Shown here piece after piece: positions 15,787-63,806 of a stretch of 64,000 nucleotides of DNA; positions within the stretch are counted from its first letter, which is position 1; every line of letters starts with the position of its first letter. The DNA is from Candidatus Omnitrophota bacterium. Lineage in GTDB: Bacteria > Omnitrophota > Gorgyraeia > B26-G9. Under the pieces are notes generated by a model, which was not told the origin of the DNA, ran no database searches, and was given only the letters and a program-made list of their open reading frames with translations. A program made the position numbers and the translations under genes. The stretch covers positions 67,354 to 131,353 of the forward strand of contig JBDRJV010000007.1 of the NCBI GenBank assembly GCA_043814605.1. The letters run 5' to 3'.

Positions 15787-15844
15787 TTAAATAGAGGCAA
15801 TATATGCATTTTTCTTATATTAGCCCTTTACAGCTGAAAAAATC

Positions 15845-15975
15845 GAAAAAGGCAAACCTGTTGAAAAACAGGGACTCCCGCCAATGGCGGGATCCTGCTG
15901 CAGTTTAGGCAGGAGCAAAGCCGCGGGTCTAAAGGCGATCCTCATAGACAGCCGGGTTACCGAAGCAAAGGGGAA
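15845..15975 (+). ncRNA. c-di-GMP-I (GEMM)-like riboswitch aptamer candidate in the 5' leader of the minor-pilin operon
   Basis: GEMM hallmark segments occur in the canonical order. GGCAAACC (15851-58) is followed by a 6-bp hairpin capped by a GAAA tetraloop (CCUGUU-GAAA-AACAGG). GCAAAGCC lies at 15915-22. CUAAA ... CCGGGUUACCGAAG lies at ~15929-15965. Two extra small hairpins sit between the first and second conserved blocks. Confidence 0.5.
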
Positions 15976-16040: not shown

Positions 16041-16502
16041 ATGAAAAATAAAAGCGGTTTTACTTTAATTGAGATTTTAGTTTCAGTAGGTATTTTGGCT
16101 ATAGCCTTAACCTCAACCCTACAAATCCTGAAATTTTTAAATGATCTGACTGAGCAAAATAATATTTCTGTAATTTGCACAAATCATAGCGAAGGGATTA
16201 TCAGCGCAATAAGAAACCTAAATTTTGATGATGTTATTTCAGCCTATGATGGCCGGACATTCACAATCCCGGAATTAACAGCTTTAAATATTAATCACAG
16301 CGGATTGATCAGGGCAAATGAAATCGAAGCAAATTTTTTGATCCGGGTTAAAGTTGTTGTCTGCTATCAGCAGAAAAACCGTTTTTTTGGTGAGGATATT
16401 AATTTTAATAATCTTTTAGATAGCGGTGAAGACCTGAATAATAACGGAGAAATAGATTCACCCTGTACTTTTGAAACTGTGATTGTAGATACGGAAAGAT
16501 AA
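16041..16502 (+). CDS. type IV minor pilin / pseudopilin (PilV/FimT-like) with prepilin N-terminal methylation motif
   Basis: N-terminus KSGFTLIEILVSVGILAIAL, i.e. a G|FTLIE prepilin peptidase site plus hydrophobic helix; 153 aa. Confidence 0.8.
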   Translation: MKNKSGFTLIEILVSVGILAIALTSTLQILKFLNDLTEQNNISVICTNHSEGIISAIRNLNFDDVISAYDGRTFTIPELTALNINHSGLIRANEIEANFLIRVKVVVCYQQKNRFFGEDINFNNLLDSGEDLNNNGEIDSPCTFETVIVDTER

Positions 16503-24908: not shown

Positions 24909-26186
24909 ATGGAAAAGTTAATTATTATTTTACCGACTGTAGGAATTTTGTTTTTAATAATCCTAGGAATGCTGGCACCGCTCATGGCCCCGCCGGCATT
25001 TCTGGCCACTCTGCCTTTTATTGCCTTAGCAATTTATTTATACAAGAAAAAAAACAGCCTGAAAAAAGAATTAGAGGAAATGCGGCTTTCTTACCGGCAG
25101 AAAAAAATAGAAATTGAAAAAGAAATCATAAAAAAAGACAAAAGGCAGTCTGAACAGTTTAACGAATTAAAAAAATTCGGCCGGGATCTTTCCGGAGCTT
25201 TAAATAAAGGGGAATTATTGCGTTTGATTGCCAATACGTTTCAAAAACTAACTGTTTCTAAATCCGGAGAGAGTCAGTGTTTTTTATTAAGCAATGATTT
25301 AGGCTCAGATGAATTTATCTATGAAGTGGGAGATAATTTTGATAGTAATATCCTAAAATCATTACGTTTTAAAACCACGGATGAGATCATTCAAAGCGTA
25401 GTGACATCTAAAAAAGTGCATACCTTTATCAGTGATATCTTTAGCGGAGATTCAAATATAACTTATTTTTTTAAATCAGAACATTTGGCAACACTGGCGC
25501 AGCTGGATTCTATGGCATTAATCCCCCTAATTTTAGAGGATGAGGTGTGGGGAATTATTGTAATTTTTTGCCATGAGGATGCAGCGGAAAACATAAAAAA
25601 AGAAGAAGAATTTTTTGAGCTATTGATGGCCCAGGCATCGATTGCTTTAGGCAGTGCAATTCACCGCGGTTTAGCCAGTGTGGATAGATTAACGCAATTG
25701 TATAACCGGACTTTTCTGCAAAAACGCATGAATGAGGAAATTGAATTTTGTAACCGGCAATTTTTACCAATGAGCCTGATGATGTTAGATATTGACCATT
25801 TTAAAGAAATCAATGACCTTTACGGGCATCAAGAGGGGGATATGGTTTTAAAAAAAATTGCCCATATTATCAGTAAAAATGTCCGGTTAACCGATTTAGT
25901 CGCGCGTTATGGGGGCGAGGAATTTGTGGTTGTTTTGCCGGGGATTGCGGAAACAACATTTGGAAAATTTTCCATTGCGAAAAGATTATGTGAATCTATT
26001 GCCAAGGAAGACTTTATTATCAGTGAGGAAAAAAAGATAAAAGTAACCGTAAGTATTGGGGTTGCGCTGCGCCGCTATCCTGATGATAAAGCACAGGGCA
26101 TGCAGGAATTAATCAAAAAAGCCGATACCCTGCTCTATAAGGCCAAAAATTCCGGCCGTAATCAAGTTTGTTATAGTGCAGATTAA
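24909..26186 (+). CDS. membrane-anchored diguanylate cyclase (GGDEF domain, GGEEF active site) with a GAF-like sensor region
   Basis: Two N-terminal TM helices; RYGGEEF active site; I-site-like RxxD upstream; DxLT..NR motif typical of GGDEF domains. Confidence 0.82.
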   Translation: MEKLIIILPTVGILFLIILGMLAPLMAPPAFLATLPFIALAIYLYKKKNSLKKELEEMRLSYRQKKIEIEKEIIKKDKRQSEQFNELKKFGRDLSGALNKGELLRLIANTFQKLTVSKSGESQCFLLSNDLGSDEFIYEVGDNFDSNILKSLRFKTTDEIIQSVVTSKKVHTFISDIFSGDSNITYFFKSEHLATLAQLDSMALIPLILEDEVWGIIVIFCHEDAAENIKKEEEFFELLMAQASIALGSAIHRGLASVDRLTQLYNRTFLQKRMNEEIEFCNRQFLPMSLMMLDIDHFKEINDLYGHQEGDMVLKKIAHIISKNVRLTDLVARYGGEEFVVVLPGIAETTFGKFSIAKRLCESIAKEDFIISEEKKIKVTVSIGVALRRYPDDKAQGMQELIKKADTLLYKAKNSGRNQVCYSAD

Positions 26187-44208: not shown

Positions 44209-44520
44209 ATGAATAATTGGAACATACCAGAATGGCTTGAAAAGAAAATAACCAAAAGAGACAAGTTTTGTATTTATTGCGGAGTTAGATTTGGTACATC
44301 AAAAGAATCCAAGAAAACTCAAGCTTCTTGGGAACATATAATAAATGATGCAAAAATAATTACCAAAGATAATATTGCACGTTGTTGTGTAGCCTGCAAT
44401 TCAAGTAAAGGGACTAAAAAACTTTCAGGCTGGATAAATTCAAAATATTGCATAGAAAAAGGCATAAATAAAAATACTGTTGCCGATATAGTTAAAAAGG
44501 CATTAAATAAAAACTTCTAA
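44209..44520 (+). CDS. small HNH endonuclease
   Basis: 103 aa; HNH signature CIYCG ... WEHIIND ... CCVACNSSKG (CxxC...H...N...CxxCN); AT-rich, likely foreign. Confidence 0.7.
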   Translation: MNNWNIPEWLEKKITKRDKFCIYCGVRFGTSKESKKTQASWEHIINDAKIITKDNIARCCVACNSSKGTKKLSGWINSKYCIEKGINKNTVADIVKKALNKNF

Positions 44521-44600
44521 TAACGCACTACAAATGACTGTTACCAGTCATCTTTCGGTATTGGCTACCAGCAGGTGAGTTTGAATGTTATAATATAAAA

Positions 44601-45129
44601 ATGCAAAAATTAAAAACCCGTAAACCTACCAGATTAAATAATTATGATTATTCGTTGAATGGTTATTATTTTGTAACGATGTGTTCCAAGGATAGAAAAA
44701 ATATTTTTGGTGAAAATATAAATACAAATGACGTAGGGGCCGGCCTTGCGTCGGCCCGTGACAATATAAATTTATCAAAAATTGGTCAAATTGTTGATAA
44801 TCTAATCAATATGATGATGTTGCATTAGACAAATATATGTGATCATGCCTAATCACATACATGGAATTTTGATTATTAATAAATTACGGGAGGAGGCAAG
44901 CCCCTCCCCTACGATTTCTGACATTATTTGTTATTTTAAATCAAAATGCACGAATGAATATTTGAATCACATTAACCAGAATGATCTAAATATTTCTGGT
45001 AAAATCTGGCAACGATCATTCTACGACCACGTTATCAGAAACAAACGTTCTTTAAACGCTATTAGAAATTATATTGCAACTAATCCCGAAAACTGGGAGA
45101 ATGATATTGATAATTTAATAAATTTATAA
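44601..45129 (+). pseudogene. tnpA: disrupted IS200/IS605-family Y1 (HuH) transposase, RAYT-like, split into two ORFs
   Basis: ORF1 N-terminus RLNNYDYSLNGYYFVTMCSKDRKNIF and ORF2 motifs MPNHIHGILII (HuH) and RSFYDHVIRN (catalytic Tyr) are in different frames. GC-rich hairpin-like inserts (GGGCCGGCCTTGCGTCGGCCC; GGGAGGAGGCAAGCCCCTCCCC) interrupt both parts. Confidence 0.6.
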
Positions 45130-45211
45130 CGATTCGCTCCAGGCAATCCCGCCGGCCAATTTTTTATTCTATTTTTACAATCATCCAGAATCTAGGATCT
45201 AGAATCTGCTT

Positions 45212-45745
45212 TTATTTCCGATCAAAAAATATATTCTTTCCTGTAGCGGATAAAGGTATGGCGAGGGCGATTTTTACACTTTTATCTTCAAATAAATTTA
45301 AAGCGATTGCGGCTTTTCCTGCAGAATACATGATCCGGTTATCAATATGAAATTTTGCCGCCATGTTTACCGCTGAACCCAGGGCAATACCCAGGTCAAT
45401 AGTATTAAACGCACAGATAGATTTGGCTTTTAACATTGCCTGGCAGTTATCATAATTACAGAGGCTGCAATATTCAATTCCTAATGCCTGTGCTTTTGTG
45501 GCAATGAATACAATCACCGGTGCGGATTTCAAATTTTCTGCATCGCGCTTAAATCCCGGCTTGTTTTTAGAAACAGCTAACTCTTGCATTTTTTTAATTA
45601 ATTTATTTTTTGCATTTGCTTTATCTAGGATTAAAGTAACAATATTATCTGCGCCTTTGGCTTTGGGAGCAGTACGCGCTGCAGTAATCATAAACCCGGC
45701 TACTTGTTTTAAAATATTTTTTTCGATTTTTTTTGTCTGGTCCAT
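45212..45745 (-). CDS. conserved hypothetical protein with Cys cluster (possibly DUF2148/COG4739-type ferredoxin-domain protein)
   Basis: 177-aa ORF on the minus strand with CSLCNYDNC (CxxCxxxxC) plus a further Cys; the only substantial minus-strand gene in the window; convergent with the insertion. Confidence 0.4.
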
Positions 45746-58325: not shown

Positions 58326-58625
58326 ATCGCAGAAGTATGAAATTCAAAATAAAATAAAAAATGACCGAAAGTTAATTTTTTTTCTCTAGTTTTTGCTCCT
58401 TAATGGTATAGGATAAAAGAAAAGGTCAAAATATAGGCGAATGAGTTACCTATTATATTATTTGACTATATAATACACTTATAGTAGCATAACTTTATAT
58501 AGTACCGAACGTTAGATGATTAAAATTAAAATTGAACAAGGAGAAAGAAAAAAGCATATTTTATAAAATATTTTAAAAAAACGGTAATTTTATTAAGTAG
58601 AGATTGGTTTTTCTAAGGGTGAGCC

Positions 58626-59216
58626 ATGGCGAGAGAAAATATTATGCAAGCTTTAATAAAAGGAATGTTTTTAAATATATTGTTAAATTATTTAAAAAAA
58701 AATTCACATGATTTGGTAACAGAAAAAGTAAGTAAAATGCTGGATAAGCCATTAAAATATGTTGATTTTTTTGACTATCCTATAGAAGAATTTATCCTGC
58801 TCATTGAAGAAATTATAAAACAGGTTTTCCCGGATAAAACTTTTGAGGAGGCGTGCTATGAATTAGGCAGAATTTCAGTCGAGGGAATAATTATAAGTCC
58901 TGTGGCAAAAGTGGCTATCGCCTATGCAAAAAAAAATATCCAGGGAGCGATTAAGAATACGCCTTTCTATTTTTCGCAATTTGCCAAAATGGGCAAGGTA
59001 TCTGTTAATCAAAAGAGTGATTATATTTTTAACGTTGTTTTTAAGGCATGGAAGATTTATCCTTATTATGCATACGGTTTGCTTGTTTTTGTATTAAAAG
59101 AAATAGACGCAAAATTAAAGTTAAAATTAGAAGTTGCCAATGTTAAAATTTTAGGTCTAGGTAAGGTTGAATCTGATTTCACCTGCATATTAGAGTTGCC
59201 GGAGGGTAAAAAATAA
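58626..59216 (+). CDS. uncharacterised paralog family A, copy 1 (~190 aa; H-NOX-like layout, no conserved heme ligands)
   Basis: Shares a KPLKY(V/I)DFFDY.I.E(F/Y).(I/L)L.EE ... ACYELG(R/K)I(S/T) ... AKV.IAYA(K/R)(K/R)NI.GA.KN ... KLK(L/F)EV core with the next two ORFs. Confidence 0.6.
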   Translation: MARENIMQALIKGMFLNILLNYLKKNSHDLVTEKVSKMLDKPLKYVDFFDYPIEEFILLIEEIIKQVFPDKTFEEACYELGRISVEGIIISPVAKVAIAYAKKNIQGAIKNTPFYFSQFAKMGKVSVNQKSDYIFNVVFKAWKIYPYYAYGLLVFVLKEIDAKLKLKLEVANVKILGLGKVESDFTCILELPEGKK

Positions 59217-59274
59217 TCAGAGGGAATAATCTGTGGTGGGCTGATAAAACAAATAATAAAGAAGGAACATAATT

Positions 59275-59847
59275 GTGGAAGGTTTAGGAAAAGGAATATT
59301 CGCAAATATAATTTTGAAATATTTAAGAGAAAATCACCATGAGCCGGTAATCGAAAAAGTAAGTAAAATGCTGGGCAAGCCATTAAAATATATTGATTTT
59401 TTCGACTACCCTATTCCAGAATTTATGATTCTTATCGAAGAAATTGCGAAAGAAGTTTTTCCGCATAAAACATTAGAAGATGCATGCTATGAATTAGGCA
59501 GGATTTCAATTAATAAAGTGTTGGATATTCCGGTGGCGAAGGTTGCTATTGCCTATGCGAGGAAGAATATTCATGGCGCGGTTAAAAATGTTCCCTTATA
59601 TTTCTCGCAATTTGCAAGGATGGGAGAGGTTGCCGTTAGTCAGCCTAATCAAAATAGTTATGAGGTAAGATTTAAGGAATGGCAAGGGTATCCGCATTAT
59701 ACATATGCCATGCTTGTTTTTTCAGTAAAAGAAATAGATCCGAATATGAAGTTAAAACTGGAAGTTAGGGATGTAAAAATTTTAGGAAAAGGTAAAGTTA
59801 TATCTGATTTTTCGTGTATCTTGGAGCTACCAAAAGATAAAGAATAA
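59275..59847 (+). CDS. uncharacterised paralog family A, copy 2
   Basis: ~70% identical to copy 1 over the core; GTG start with RBS AAGGAA. Confidence 0.6.
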   Translation: MEGLGKGIFANIILKYLRENHHEPVIEKVSKMLGKPLKYIDFFDYPIPEFMILIEEIAKEVFPHKTLEDACYELGRISINKVLDIPVAKVAIAYARKNIHGAVKNVPLYFSQFARMGEVAVSQPNQNSYEVRFKEWQGYPHYTYAMLVFSVKEIDPNMKLKLEVRDVKILGKGKVISDFSCILELPKDKE

Positions 59848-59898
59848 TTCGATAAATTTCTAAAAAAATAACTAGACAGAAAAAAGATTAAGATTACT

Positions 59899-60471
59899 AT
59901 GCAAAGTATGTTGAAGGGAATATTTTTTAATATATTTTTAAATTACCTGAGAAAAAATAATTATGAACAAGTAATTGAAAATTTCAGCCAGATAACGGGT
60001 AAATCATTGAAATATGTTGATTTTTTTGACTACAGTATTGAAGAGTATATTATTTTAATGGAGGAAATGGCTAAACAAATTTTCCCGGATAAGACAAAAG
60101 AAGCAGCTTACTATGAATTAGGGAAAATAACCGCTATAGCAGTCCTTAATACGTCCATGGCTAAAGTAGGTATTGCTTATGCAAAAAGGAATATTCGCGG
60201 CGCTTTAAAAAATCTGCCGTTTTATTTTTATCAATTTGCAAAAATGAAGGAAGTAAGTGTTAAGCAACTTGATCAAAATAGGTATAAAATAATGTTTAAG
60301 GGCTGGCCGATTTATCCTGATAGTGAGCATGGTTTGTTTAATTTTATCGTAAAACAATTAGATCCGAAAATTAATTTAAAATTCGAGGTTATAAGTTTAG
60401 AAAACCTCGGCCATGGAAAGATCCGGACAGATTTCTCATTTACAGTGGAGTTACCGGAAAGTAAAGAATAA
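59899..60471 (+). CDS. uncharacterised paralog family A, copy 3
   Basis: Same conserved blocks as copies 1 and 2 (LKYVDFFDY, YELGKIT, AKVGIAYAKRNIRGALKN). Confidence 0.6.
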   Translation: MQSMLKGIFFNIFLNYLRKNNYEQVIENFSQITGKSLKYVDFFDYSIEEYIILMEEMAKQIFPDKTKEAAYYELGKITAIAVLNTSMAKVGIAYAKRNIRGALKNLPFYFYQFAKMKEVSVKQLDQNRYKIMFKGWPIYPDSEHGLFNFIVKQLDPKINLKFEVISLENLGHGKIRTDFSFTVELPESKE

Positions 60472-60492
60472 TTTCTCAGGCGATAATATATT

Positions 60493-60885
60493 ATGGCGAT
60501 AAAATCACACTGGATAATGCATAAGAATAAGAGAATATATTTTGTGGATTATTCAGGATTTGGCCATGATTTTGAGTTATTAAAAAAGGAAATTAAAGAA
60601 TCAACAATTGTAATTTGTGCTCAACCGGAAAAGTTTGTGTTGACGCTGGTTGATGTAAGTAATACTGTGGCTACTTCCCAGGCACTTGACTATCTTAAGG
60701 AATGTTTAAAATCGTCAAATAAACACATGAAAAAAATTGCTGTGCTCGGGGTTGAAGGGCTTAAAAATATACTGATGAAAGCGATCATCAGAATTTTTAA
60801 TCTGAATATAAAGTCTTTTGAGCATACGGAAAAAGCTAAAGATTGGTTGATTGAAAGTGATGAAACTGATGATAAATCTGGTTAA
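60493..60885 (+). CDS. uncharacterised paralog family B, copy 1 (~128 aa; STAS/anti-sigma-antagonist-like pattern)
   Basis: Core (M/P)IKSHWI.(H/Y)K.K(R)IYF.DYS.F ... E..VL.L.DV.NTV..S.(A/S)L..LKE ... K(H)MK(K/R)(I/V)A.(L/I)G..G..(N/K)I.M.A..R(I/V)FNL ... F....(E/Q)AKDWL shared with three other ORFs. Confidence 0.6.
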   Translation: MAIKSHWIMHKNKRIYFVDYSGFGHDFELLKKEIKESTIVICAQPEKFVLTLVDVSNTVATSQALDYLKECLKSSNKHMKKIAVLGVEGLKNILMKAIIRIFNLNIKSFEHTEKAKDWLIESDETDDKSG

Positions 60886-60906
60886 AATCGGGTAAAGGGA
60901 AAAACT

Positions 60907-61293
60907 GTGGCAATTAAATCACATTGGATAACGCATAAGAATAAAAGAATATATTTTATGGATGGGTCAGGACTGGGAGCTAATTTTGAGTTAGCAAAAA
61001 ATGAAATAGATGCGACAGCTTCAGCAGTTTCTACAGAGCCAGAAAAATCAGTATTAATTTTATTTGATGTAAATAATACTGTCGTTACTTCTCAATCGCT
61101 CACCTATCTTAAAGAGGCTCTAAAATTATCAAGTAAGCATGTAAAAAAAGTAGCTTCGATTGGAGTCAAGGGTGCAAAGAAAATAATAATGAGCATGATT
61201 ATCAGGGTGTTCAATCTGAATGTTGAGCCCTTTGATAATTTAGAGCAAGCTAAGGATTGGTTAGTGGAAGGTAATGTTACTGAAAATTCCTAA
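60907..61293 (+). CDS. uncharacterised paralog family B, copy 2
   Basis: Same conserved blocks; GTG start. Confidence 0.6.
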   Translation: MAIKSHWITHKNKRIYFMDGSGLGANFELAKNEIDATASAVSTEPEKSVLILFDVNNTVVTSQSLTYLKEALKLSSKHVKKVASIGVKGAKKIIMSMIIRVFNLNVEPFDNLEQAKDWLVEGNVTENS

Positions 61294-61317
61294 AAATTCC
61301 AGGAAGGAGCCAGGCAG

Positions 61318-61698
61318 ATGCCGATAAAGTCACATTGGATAAAATATAAAGAAAAAAGAATTTATTTTTGTGATTATTCAAATTTTAGTGATAAATTTGA
61401 ATTATTAAATGAAGAGATGTCCGGTGCGACTGAAATAATCTGTCAAGAGCCAGAAATTTCCGTGTTGATTCTCGTGGATATAAGTAATAGTTTAGCTAAT
61501 GCTCGGGCTTTTAATCAGGTTAAGGAATATATGAAAAGATCAGGCAAGCATATGAGGGCGATTGCGGTTATTGGCTCAACAAAGGTTCGTAATATCATGA
61601 TCCGGGCTGTAGCACGAATATTTAATTTAGAGATTATGCCTTTTGATGATCCAGAATCAGCTAAACAATGGTTGATCAACAAAGATTTTTCCGCTTAA
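61318..61698 (+). CDS. uncharacterised paralog family B, copy 3
   Basis: Same conserved blocks; RBS GGAAGGAG. Confidence 0.6.
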   Translation: MPIKSHWIKYKEKRIYFCDYSNFSDKFELLNEEMSGATEIICQEPEISVLILVDISNSLANARAFNQVKEYMKRSGKHMRAIAVIGSTKVRNIMIRAVARIFNLEIMPFDDPESAKQWLINKDFSA

Positions 61699-61761: not shown

Positions 61762-62226
61762 ATGCGCAGCATTATTAAGATTTTTGTTATTGTTTTAATG
61801 GTAAGCGGGATTGTCAAAGTACAAGCCCAGGAAGAAATTGAAAAACAAGCAGTTTCTCCGGAAGCGGCTGCAGAAATAAAAGAAATATCCATTGAATCGC
61901 TGCCGCCAGTAGTAACAAAAACTGTACCCCAGTCCGGAGACCTGGCGGTTGATCCGGCTTTAAAAGAAATCAGTGTTAGTTTTAGCAAAGATATGATGCA
62001 ACAGGATATGTGGGCATGGGTAATGGTGTCTAAAGATTCGTTTCCCGAAATAACCGGAAACATAAAATTTCTTGATGACGGAAGAACTTGTGTTGCTCCG
62101 GTTGAACTTAAACCTAATAAAACTTATGCAATTTGGTTTAACTCCGAAAATCATACAGCATTTAGATGTATAAACGGCTGCAGTGCTGTACCGTATTTAT
62201 TAGTGTTCCAGACAAAAAGTGAATAA
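61762..62226 (+). CDS. hypothetical secreted protein
   Basis: Strong RBS AAAGGAGGT; signal peptide MRSIIKIFVIVLMVSGIVKVQAQEE; preferred over the overlapping minus-strand ORF 61701..62063. Confidence 0.55.
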   Translation: MRSIIKIFVIVLMVSGIVKVQAQEEIEKQAVSPEAAAEIKEISIESLPPVVTKTVPQSGDLAVDPALKEISVSFSKDMMQQDMWAWVMVSKDSFPEITGNIKFLDDGRTCVAPVELKPNKTYAIWFNSENHTAFRCINGCSAVPYLLVFQTKSE

Positions 62227-62513
62227 TCGATTCAGGGGATAGGCAGAGTAGGGCTAAGGGGGGGCAGGATGGATGGGGCAATAAAGGGAATATTCTTTCA
62301 AGGACAATTGAAAACTTTAATCGGATATATTCCTGTATGCGCAAATTGCGAGCAAATCAGAGATGATCAGGGGGCCTGGAATCGTATGGAGAAATATATT
62401 TCCGATAGGGCAGAAGTTGATTTTACACAGTATTTGCCCGGAATGCGCAGAAAAATTATACAATGAAGTTTTAAATGAATAAAATTTAAAAAAATGAGGG
62501 AGAAAAGGGAAAG

Positions 62514-62801
62514 ATGAAAAAAATAAAATTTTTTAAATATATTTGTGTGCTCGGGGCAATGTTAATTGCTGTCCCGGTAATTTTCGCACAGGATGTTTTA
62601 AAAGATAAGCCAAATGAAAAAAATCTTTTTCAAACAAAATGTGCTAAATGCCATTCACTGGATAAGTCACTATCAAAAACTAAAACATTAGCAGGCTGGC
62701 AGAAAACAACCCAAAGAATGGCAAAAAAGAAAAACAGTGAGATAACTCGGGAAGAAGCAGAAGAAATTGCCGGTTATTTAGCGGATAAAAAGAGTGAATA
62801 G
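62514..62801 (+). CDS. small secreted mono-heme c-type cytochrome-like protein (CxxCH)
   Basis: Signal peptide (MKKIKFFKYICVLGAMLIAVPVIFA) followed by a CAKCH heme-binding motif, with a downstream Met (QRMAKK) as a possible axial ligand; 95 aa. Confidence 0.5.
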   Translation: MKKIKFFKYICVLGAMLIAVPVIFAQDVLKDKPNEKNLFQTKCAKCHSLDKSLSKTKTLAGWQKTTQRMAKKKNSEITREEAEEIAGYLADKKSE

Positions 62802-62810
62802 GTAATTTTC

Positions 62811-63017
62811 GTGCAAAAATTTTTAGCTATTTTTAATTTAACTCAATTTCTTTTGCCATTAGGGATTGCTACGTTTACCTGTATTGTGATTACGTTGGGG
62901 TTAGGATTAAATATCCATAAAAATAGAAAACTTTTGCTGCCTTGGCATAAAAGAACAGCTTTTTTAGCTTTGGTACTGGCGTTAATTCATGGGGCAATTG
63001 CCTTGTTTTTATTTTAA
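62811..63017 (+). CDS. small two-TM membrane protein, hypothetical
   Basis: 68 aa, two hydrophobic helices; weak call (GTG start). Confidence 0.35.
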   Translation: MQKFLAIFNLTQFLLPLGIATFTCIVITLGLGLNIHKNRKLLLPWHKRTAFLALVLALIHGAIALFLF

Positions 63018-63032
63018 AAAAAGGAGGATGAA

Positions 63033-63275
63033 ATGACTTTAGAATTACTAAGGGAAATATTTAAGTGGTGTTCAATTATTAACTTTGGATTATTTATGCT
63101 GAGTATTATTGTTATTTGCTCAGGGCGGGATTGGATCTGTAAAATGCATGGAAAATGGTATAACATACCGGAAGATAAAATATGCGTAATTTTATATCAG
63201 GTAATGGCATTTTATAAAATCAGCATATTAATTTTTAATGTCATACCGTTTATTGTACTAAGTATTTTAACTTAA
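63033..63275 (+). CDS. small two-TM membrane protein, hypothetical
   Basis: RBS AGGAGG before the ATG; 80 aa with two hydrophobic helices. Confidence 0.45.
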   Translation: MTLELLREIFKWCSIINFGLFMLSIIVICSGRDWICKMHGKWYNIPEDKICVILYQVMAFYKISILIFNVIPFIVLSILT

Positions 63276-63347
63276 ATAAAATTGTTTATTATTGACTAAA
63301 TTTTGTCCTCATACTAAAATATAGCACGTACAATAAAATTATAATTT

Positions 63348-63731
63348 TTGAAAAAGGAAAATATGAAATCAAACTGGATAATCCATAAAGAGAAAAGGAT
63401 TTATTTCTGTGATTATTCTAATTTTGGCAGTGATTTTGAGGCATTAAAAGAAGAAATGGTTGCAGTTACCGGAGTTTTGATTCAAGAGCCGGAAAATTCG
63501 GTTCTGATTCTGACAGATGTTACCAATACTGTTGCCAGCCCGAAAGCATTAGATCAATTAAAAGCCGGCATGAAATTTTCAGGTAAACATATGAAACGAG
63601 TTGCGGTTGTGGGAGTAACGGGTGTGCGGAATATTATGCTTAAAGCCGTAGCCCGGACATTTAATCTGAGTATATTCCCGTTTTCGGATATTGAAAAAGC
63701 TAAAGATTGGCTTGTTGAGCACGATCACTAA
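63348..63731 (+). CDS. uncharacterised paralog family B, copy 4 (displaced from the main array)
   Basis: SNWIIHKEKRIYFCDYSNFG ... VLILTDVTNTVASPKALDQLK ... KHMKRVAVVGVTGVRNIMLKAVARTFNL ... EKAKDWL; the start may be the internal ATG at 63363. Confidence 0.6.
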   Translation: MKKENMKSNWIIHKEKRIYFCDYSNFGSDFEALKEEMVAVTGVLIQEPENSVLILTDVTNTVASPKALDQLKAGMKFSGKHMKRVAVVGVTGVRNIMLKAVARTFNLSIFPFSDIEKAKDWLVEHDH

Positions 63732-63772
63732 TATTTTTTAGCGTGCATATTTTTAACTATTTTTTATAAAAC

Positions 63773-63806
63773 CCCCACGGGCTTTAGCCCGTGGGGGCTT
63801 TATTTG
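63773..63806 (+). terminator. rho-independent terminator
   Basis: CCCCCACGGGC-ttta-GCCCGTGGGGG followed by a T-rich tract. Confidence 0.75.

Follow-up and report, generated by a model that had tools for sequence, protein, structure and literature searches.

Seven open reading frames (ORFs) of two paralogous families are packed on the plus strand toward the end of a 64,000-nt stretch of the genome of Candidatus Omnitrophota bacterium (assembly GCA_043814605.1, contig JBDRJV010000007.1, positions 67,354-131,353 of the forward strand), hereafter called the window. Family A is represented by three consecutive genes, A1 (58626-59216, 196 amino acids, aa), A2 (59275-59847, 190 aa) and A3 (59899-60471, 190 aa), all of the DUF2378/TIGR02265 type. 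These are followed by three genes of family B, which encode single-domain STAS proteins of the SpoIIAA-like, or DUF3478, type: B1 (60493-60885, 130 aa), B2 (60907-61293, 128 aa) and B3 (61318-61698, 126 aa). The gaps along the series A1-A2-A3-B1-B2-B3 are 58, 51, 21, 21, and 24 nt. A fourth STAS gene, B4 (63348-63731), lies 1.6 kb downstream of B1-B3, and the ATG at 63363, preceded by a putative ribosome-binding site (AAGGAAA), is its more likely start. The positions in the ORF list, the sequence identities, and the family hidden Markov models (HMMs) all bear out the tandem A-A-A-B-B-B array with an additional B copy that had been described in the first-pass annotation, and the motifs quoted there, KG(I/M)F..N and ACYELGRI in family A and DVxNTV and AKDWL in family B, are all present.

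Copies of family A share 53-65% pairwise identity and those of family B 41-59%. A3 is the most diverged A copy, with 53% identity to both A1 and A2 (dN/dS, the ratio of nonsynonymous to synonymous divergence, 0.17-0.19), while B4 is 49-59% identical to B1-B3. When the family HMMs are run over the 64-kb window, precisely these seven ORFs are retrieved, at E-values of 1e-67 to 1e-113, and tblastn detects no pseudogene fragments or decayed copies of either family in the window. Between the paralogs, dS is 1.0-2.8, so that synonymous sites are near saturation, and dN/dS is 0.16-0.25. Because of these values, the A and B paralogs are old duplicates maintained by purifying selection and not fast-evolving filler, the alternative raised earlier for these genes. 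The order of similarity is congruent in the two families, (A1,A2),A3 and (B1,B2),B3, which is weak evidence for a pairing of A with B since such agreement is expected by chance in 1 of 3 cases for three taxa.

Neither family had at first been matched with confidence to a named one, but both do have names. Each of A1-A3 scores above the curated cut-offs of both PF09536 (22.2 bits) and TIGR02265 (25 bits), with about 150 of the 177-184 model positions matched: 49.8 bits (E 4.4e-13) and 33.5 bits for A1, 39.8 and 28.6 bits for A2, and 38.3 and 26.4 bits for A3. Indeed, an identical A protein in a Candidatus Omnitrophota metagenome-assembled genome (MAG) already carries the name "DUF2378 family protein" at NCBI. 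The V4R (PF02830) or XylR_N type, which had been considered for this family, is not its closest match. DUF2378/TIGR02265 was first noted as a paralogous family in Myxococcus; it is sizeable and expanded in myxobacteria. Like most of its members, the A copies are stand-alone proteins of ~185-195 aa. Their Omnitrophota genome is low in GC, while the contigs of several of their relatives have 64-69% GC.

Within this family, the A array appears to be a rare and divergent branch, because only 30 proteins reached E<=1e-3 when HMMER was run exhaustively with the three-copy family A profile against 1.84 billion representative proteins. This search was run for family A. The proteins retrieved are stand-alone and ~175-230 aa long except for three: two fragments and, close to the cut-off, a protein of 2638 aa. 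The best match outside this genome (P0005) shows 38% identity and is encoded by a single gene among housekeeping genes. The 2638-aa protein (P0033) aligns six times over, in separate stretches, with positions 51-104 of the profile (E 8.9e-4). This match may be spurious, or the protein may be composed of repeats derived from a portion of the H-NOX-like helical subdomain. A word-index protein search with A1 returned the window's own protein only, the same search with an A3 profile gave a few further distant DUF2378 proteins, tblastn of A1 against plasmids yielded no match, and pattern-based scans for relatives of A and B found none in GTDB representative genomes, JGI metagenomes, or IMG/VR.

A structure model of A2 predicts the whole fold of the heme-NO/oxygen-binding (H-NOX) domain, made up of a helical subdomain at the N-terminus and an alpha/beta subdomain, with a sheet of four strands, at the C-terminus. 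The residues that hold heme in bacterial H-NOX proteins (HNOB, PF07700; Tt H-NOX 1u55, Shewanella 4u99, Kordia 6bde) are nevertheless missing. In a profile alignment, the proximal His of 6bde, in the sequence IENH, is aligned with the Tyr of P-(F/L)-Y-F in family A, and the three copies have F-K-A-W-K, F-K-E-W-Q, and F-K-G-W-P opposite its YKSSR, so that the YxSxR motif is represented by a general F-K-x-W-x. The three A copies share no His or Cys position: the sole His of A1 is H28, which A3 lacks, and H100 of A2 sits 9 residues upstream of the aligned proximal-His position. Furthermore, no A copy matches Pfam HNOB at E<=1, while two distant relatives (P0009 and P0015) have a weak precomputed HNOB match beside DUF2378. 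Since the proximal His, the YxSxR motif, and a match to the HNOB model are all absent, family A is best classified, from its sequences, as an H-NOX-fold DUF2378 member without heme ligands and not as HNOB proper, in agreement with the heme-less character assigned to it earlier.

Could the A proteins still be genuine heme-based sensors of NO or O2 with a non-canonical ligation? The predicted full-length H-NOX fold would suit such a function, and the Tyr that aligns near the proximal-His position is invariant in the A copies; elsewhere, in unrelated kinds of protein, a Tyr can serve as heme ligand. However, besides the lack of an invariant His or Cys, of YxSxR, and of an HNOB match, the residue aligned with the proximal His is variable across 29 relatives, and we regard heme binding by these proteins as barely conceivable. 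A further difference from H-NOX is that no histidine kinase or diguanylate cyclase gene adjoins family A.

The scores place family B at the margin of PF11964 (SpoIIAA-like, formerly DUF3478). Against a gathering cut-off of 25 bits, three of the four copies are above (B2, 25.4; B3, 28.4; B4, 28.8 bits) and B1 is just under (23.3 bits), the latter also touching DUF7793; none of them matches Pfam STAS (PF01740). B3 is named "STAS/SEC14 domain-containing protein" at NCBI, again in a Candidatus Omnitrophota MAG. The model of B1 predicts a bare STAS/SpoIIAA-like alpha/beta fold, closest to the Shewanella structures 2q3l and 2ook, with a C-terminal A-x-x-W-L helix. In 2q3l this helix packs on the sheet (PMC2954212), and AKDWL of family B is its counterpart. 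Thus, the H-NOX-like and STAS-like folds that had been proposed for A and B from sequence patterns are both good inferences.

The Shewanella proteins keep conserved DUF3478 cavity or switch residues, namely W71 and a Tyr34-Asp73 pair (PMC2954212). In B1-B4, the position of W71 is occupied by L/L/F/L and that of D73 by Y/Y/Q/Q, so that neither is conserved; the aligned region excludes the N-terminal part with Tyr34. This bears on an explanation suggested by the same work (PMC2954212), in which A and B do not signal but are soluble carriers of nonpolar molecules, such as a lipid, quinone, or tetrapyrrole, for the envelope and redox proteins whose genes lie downstream. The loss of the cavity residues speaks against such a role, the array has no neighbouring gene for a transporter or for lipid metabolism, and relatives of both A and B adjoin signalling genes. 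We therefore hold this explanation to be rather unlikely.

A phosphorylatable Ser/Thr had also been ascribed to family B, in the manner of anti-sigma-factor antagonists. As a fixed site it is not supported. The start of helix alpha2, which is the phospho-Ser site of SpoIIAA (residue 62 in the model), reads S/S/A/P in the four copies, and the position aligned with Ser66 of 2q3l reads A/V/A/A. What is kept is a loop hydroxyl four residues before the start of alpha2 (T/T/S/T), beside an invariant D and an invariant N. Because the alpha2 start varies in this way and just the loop hydroxyl is conserved, the alignment does not support, but does not speak fully against, a universal phosphorylation switch in family B, which is a STAS-fold family and not a demonstrable anti-sigma antagonist. 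The combination of a SiaC/DUF1987 match with adjacent genes for a SiaB kinase and a SiaA phosphatase was likewise not found.

The same residues bear on classical partner switching, in which B would be phosphorylated by a kinase of the RsbW, SpoIIAB, or SiaB type and dephosphorylated by a PP2C phosphatase, both encoded elsewhere, with A as the input. Apart from the variable sites and the absence of a PF01740 match, PF11964, the family that B matches best, mostly has another residue in place of the phospho-Ser (PMC2954212). In the Pfam scan of large ORFs across the 64-kb window, no GHKL serine kinase of the RsbW/SpoIIAB type, no PP2C, and no sigma factor was detected, as had been remarked for the kinase and phosphatase before; the HATPase_c domain occurs only within HisKA histidine kinases, more than 35 kb from the array. 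A classical cycle thus seems very unlikely here.

The organization of the locus points to joint expression. Upstream of A1, after queA, lies an AT-rich intergenic region of 300 nt (58326-58625, plus strand) that is presumed to contain the promoter of the array; a consensus promoter scan gives a TTGACT-17-TAGCAT match at 58462-58490. No riboswitch or leader was found upstream of the array by an Rfam scan at threshold. There is no candidate for a Rho-independent terminator, whatever its strength, on the plus strand between 58326 and 63731, and the sole strong candidate of the region is an intrinsic-terminator-like hairpin just after B4 (63772-63797, plus strand), with an 11-bp stem containing 10 GC pairs and a following T-rich tail. 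Weak Rfam matches at ~63.7 kb reflect this hairpin and were rejected as an RNA element. A1-B3 probably constitute a single transcription unit, which we infer because the genes are on the same strand with gaps of 21-58 nt, share one 300-nt upstream region, and have no terminator between them.

The reading that we favor, at a probability of roughly 40%, is that the array is a lineage-specific, co-transcribed set of cytoplasmic ligand sensors (A) and STAS adaptors (B) feeding an output that is encoded elsewhere. A cytoplasmic location is indicated since the A and B sequences, read directly, have no signal peptides. The A proteins would bind a non-heme, probably hydrophobic, ligand in the cleft between the helical and the alpha/beta halves, and the ligand-bound form would change its contact with a partner protein, as a stand-alone H-NOX protein does. 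Stand-alone H-NOX proteins regulate kinases or cyclases of the same operon by direct binding. Family B would serve as a STAS module for protein interaction or switching, and most likely each A sensor would work with a B adaptor, as a "split" counterpart of proteins that combine a sensor with a STAS domain. RsbR is such a protein. Three or four diverged pairs could then pass several inputs on to a common output, an enzyme or regulator encoded elsewhere, for example proteins of cyclic di-guanosine monophosphate (c-di-GMP) signalling or two-component proteins, presumably with no classical RsbW/SpoIIAB cycle of Ser phosphorylation.

In comparison with the RsbR/RsbS stressosome and with SpoIIAA/RsbV, the sensor and the STAS protein are separate genes here, the sensor has a predicted H-NOX fold and not a globin fold, the phospho-site is not conserved in B, and no RsbT or RsbW kinase, PP2C, or sigma factor lies near the array. 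There is also no sign of a large assembly.

Relatives of the two families give some indication of the possible output. In one locus (L009, 1580-3504), a DUF2378 relative (P0009) is followed after 75 nt by a gene for a GAF-HD-GYP (HD_5) protein. The sole outside relative of family B found is encoded on the Leptolinea sp. HRD-7 plasmid AP024711.1 (22.5% identity, 94% coverage, E 2e-5), where it is located just upstream of genes for an SBP-PAS-GAF histidine kinase, two response regulators, and again a GAF-HD-GYP (HD_5) protein (L012, 8001-14060). A word-index protein search with B3 gave the window's own protein only, and an identical copy of B3 is present on a 540-bp ENA metagenome contig (L001), whose name carries the accession PRJEB10519; nothing of relevance was found under this accession. 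With one case for each family, the HD-GYP neighbours are just a lead toward a c-di-GMP output; taken together with a GGDEF protein (24909-26186) and a c-di-GMP-I riboswitch in the window, which show that c-di-GMP signalling is present in this genome, they make c-di-GMP enzymes a reasonable guess. The riboswitch (15841-15964, plus strand; RF01051, 50.3 bits against a gathering score of 35, E 7e-7) is located just upstream of the ORF at 16041-16502, inside the type IV pilus cluster (~7.7-30.5 kb), a position which suggests that pilus-related genes of this bacterium are controlled by c-di-GMP.

Several observations weigh against a sensor-adaptor partnership. Relatives of A were compared at eight independent loci, where they share 16-38% identity (L002, L003, L004-L006, L007, L008, L009, L010, and L011; L004-L006 have the same gene arrangement on three contigs and were counted as one locus). 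In 0 of the 8 does a B-like ORF, as detected by HMM, or an annotated STAS or PF11964 gene occur near the A relative. Mostly, the relatives are single genes amid housekeeping genes, and in L004-L006 a tandem DUF2378 pair, which parallels the A array in having tandem paralogs, is found with no STAS gene. Adjacency to a STAS array is thus a feature of the A array and of none of the DUF2378 relatives seen. Many of the comparison contigs are short, at 3-10 kb, and a further Omnitrophota relative of A on a 73.5-kb contig (P0006) was left out of the eight-locus comparison. The survey for family B, by word-index and pattern scans, was narrower than the exhaustive HMMER search used for A. As far as these surveys go, the linkage of A and B is seen in this one genome only, and elsewhere both families adjoin signalling genes but not each other. 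In the array itself, the order A-A-A-B-B-B implies that each gene was duplicated by itself and not as A-B pairs, B4 stands apart from any A copy, which leaves a count of 3:4, and no output protein is encoded near the array. The co-expansion of A and B in related genomes, for which the first-pass annotation had proposed a check, is not found in the eight loci, and its wording, that the arrangement "strongly suggests" functional pairing in a partner-switching module, goes too far.

A rival explanation is that of two independent arrays that came to lie side by side in an accessory stretch of lower GC, where A and B share neither contact nor pathway and have their partners elsewhere. GC is indeed 31-34% at 58-64 kb compared with ~37% in the remaining window, duplication took place within each family, STAS-free DUF2378 pairs exist in L004-L006, none of the eight loci has a B-like neighbour, and B4 sits alone behind unrelated membrane and redox genes. 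On the other side, the gap between A3 and B1 is just 21 nt with no terminator, so that co-transcription is likely; the array has three copies of each family; and both are signalling-type domains whose relatives adjoin GAF-HD-GYP genes. We consider independent arrays possible but doubtful.

In the literature searched, DUF2378 appears just as a differentially expressed gene in a study of myxobacterial predation, TIGR02265 is mentioned in no paper, and neither a functional study of DUF2378/TIGR02265 nor a link of H-NOX-like domains with DUF3478-type STAS proteins was found. Both family names are already public; what is new here is their co-expansion side by side, DUF2378 with PF11964, which is undescribed in that literature and is seen in one genome only. 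One branch of DUF2378 with a complete predicted H-NOX fold and no heme-binding residue supports the view that the H-NOX scaffold has been widely reused as a sensor of non-heme ligands. If the STAS adjacency reflects a real partnership, three sensors and four adaptors, all small and soluble, offer a compact experimental entry point to the ligands and signalling of DUF2378. If it is accidental, the locus is an ordinary lineage-specific expansion of gene families in an uncultured Omnitrophota genome. An extended form of the sensor-adaptor reading, to which we give slim odds, is that A and B make up an undescribed multi-input "split" sensory hub, in which heme-less H-NOX-fold sensors, tuned to different small ligands, would bind matching STAS adaptors, possibly within a mixed oligomer like a stressosome, and control a process such as c-di-GMP turnover with no Ser phosphorylation. 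If true, this would provide the first mechanism and the first partner for the large uncharacterised DUF2378 family.

The genes interposed between B3 and B4 (61762-63275) form a compact envelope and redox set with gaps of 9-72 nt, all on the plus strand, which is possibly in one transcription unit with the array; a promoter-like site for B4 is also found at 63292-63320 (plus strand) by the promoter scan. The set consists of genes for a secreted Big_5 protein (61762-62226, Pfam), a small frameshifted ORF with a Cys motif and no Pfam match (62269-62466), a mono-heme cytochrome c with a signal peptide and the motif CAKCH (62514-62801, Pfam), a 68-aa two-helix membrane protein with a weak ferric-reductase-like match (62811-63017), and a DUF6868 membrane protein (63033-63275; Pfam, 84.6 bits). 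The small ORF, considered over 62269-62520 on the plus strand, contains the motif IPVCANCEQIRDDQGAWNRMEKYISDRAEVDF; the reading frame then seems to shift by 1 nt, and the following frame reads on as HSICPECAEKLYNEVLNE*. This shift could stem from an assembly error or mark a pseudogene. Its four-Cys segment stands alone here, between the Big_5 and cytochrome c genes, and presumably resembles the C-terminal extension on many PAS or response-regulator proteins of Desulfobacterota-like bacteria. The N-terminus of this ORF (KGIFF) was considered as kin of family A and rejected, the similarity not being significant (E 7.5). An anti-phage defence function of the A/B array was also considered and rejected, since PADLOC at E<=0.1 gave no match for the seven A/B proteins or for three neighbour proteins.

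The rest of the window has mreD/PBP2/rodA, the type IV pilus cluster, two HisKA histidine kinases, a sigma-54 response regulator, and the GGDEF protein, as well as nusA/infB, aromatic amino-acid biosynthesis genes, rpsA, recG, EF-G, ruvCAB, queH, and queA; no tRNA genes are found in it. Almost every gene of the 64 kb is on the plus strand and the GC skew is persistently positive. In a low-GC islet at 44209-45745 (GC 0.33), the skew collapses. By eye from the translations, this islet contains a small Cys-rich, HNH-like ORF (44209-44520) and an IS200/RAYT-like Y1 transposase split in two ORFs (44601-44828 and 44839-45129), and the gene at 45212-45745 is the sole sizeable one of the window on the minus strand.

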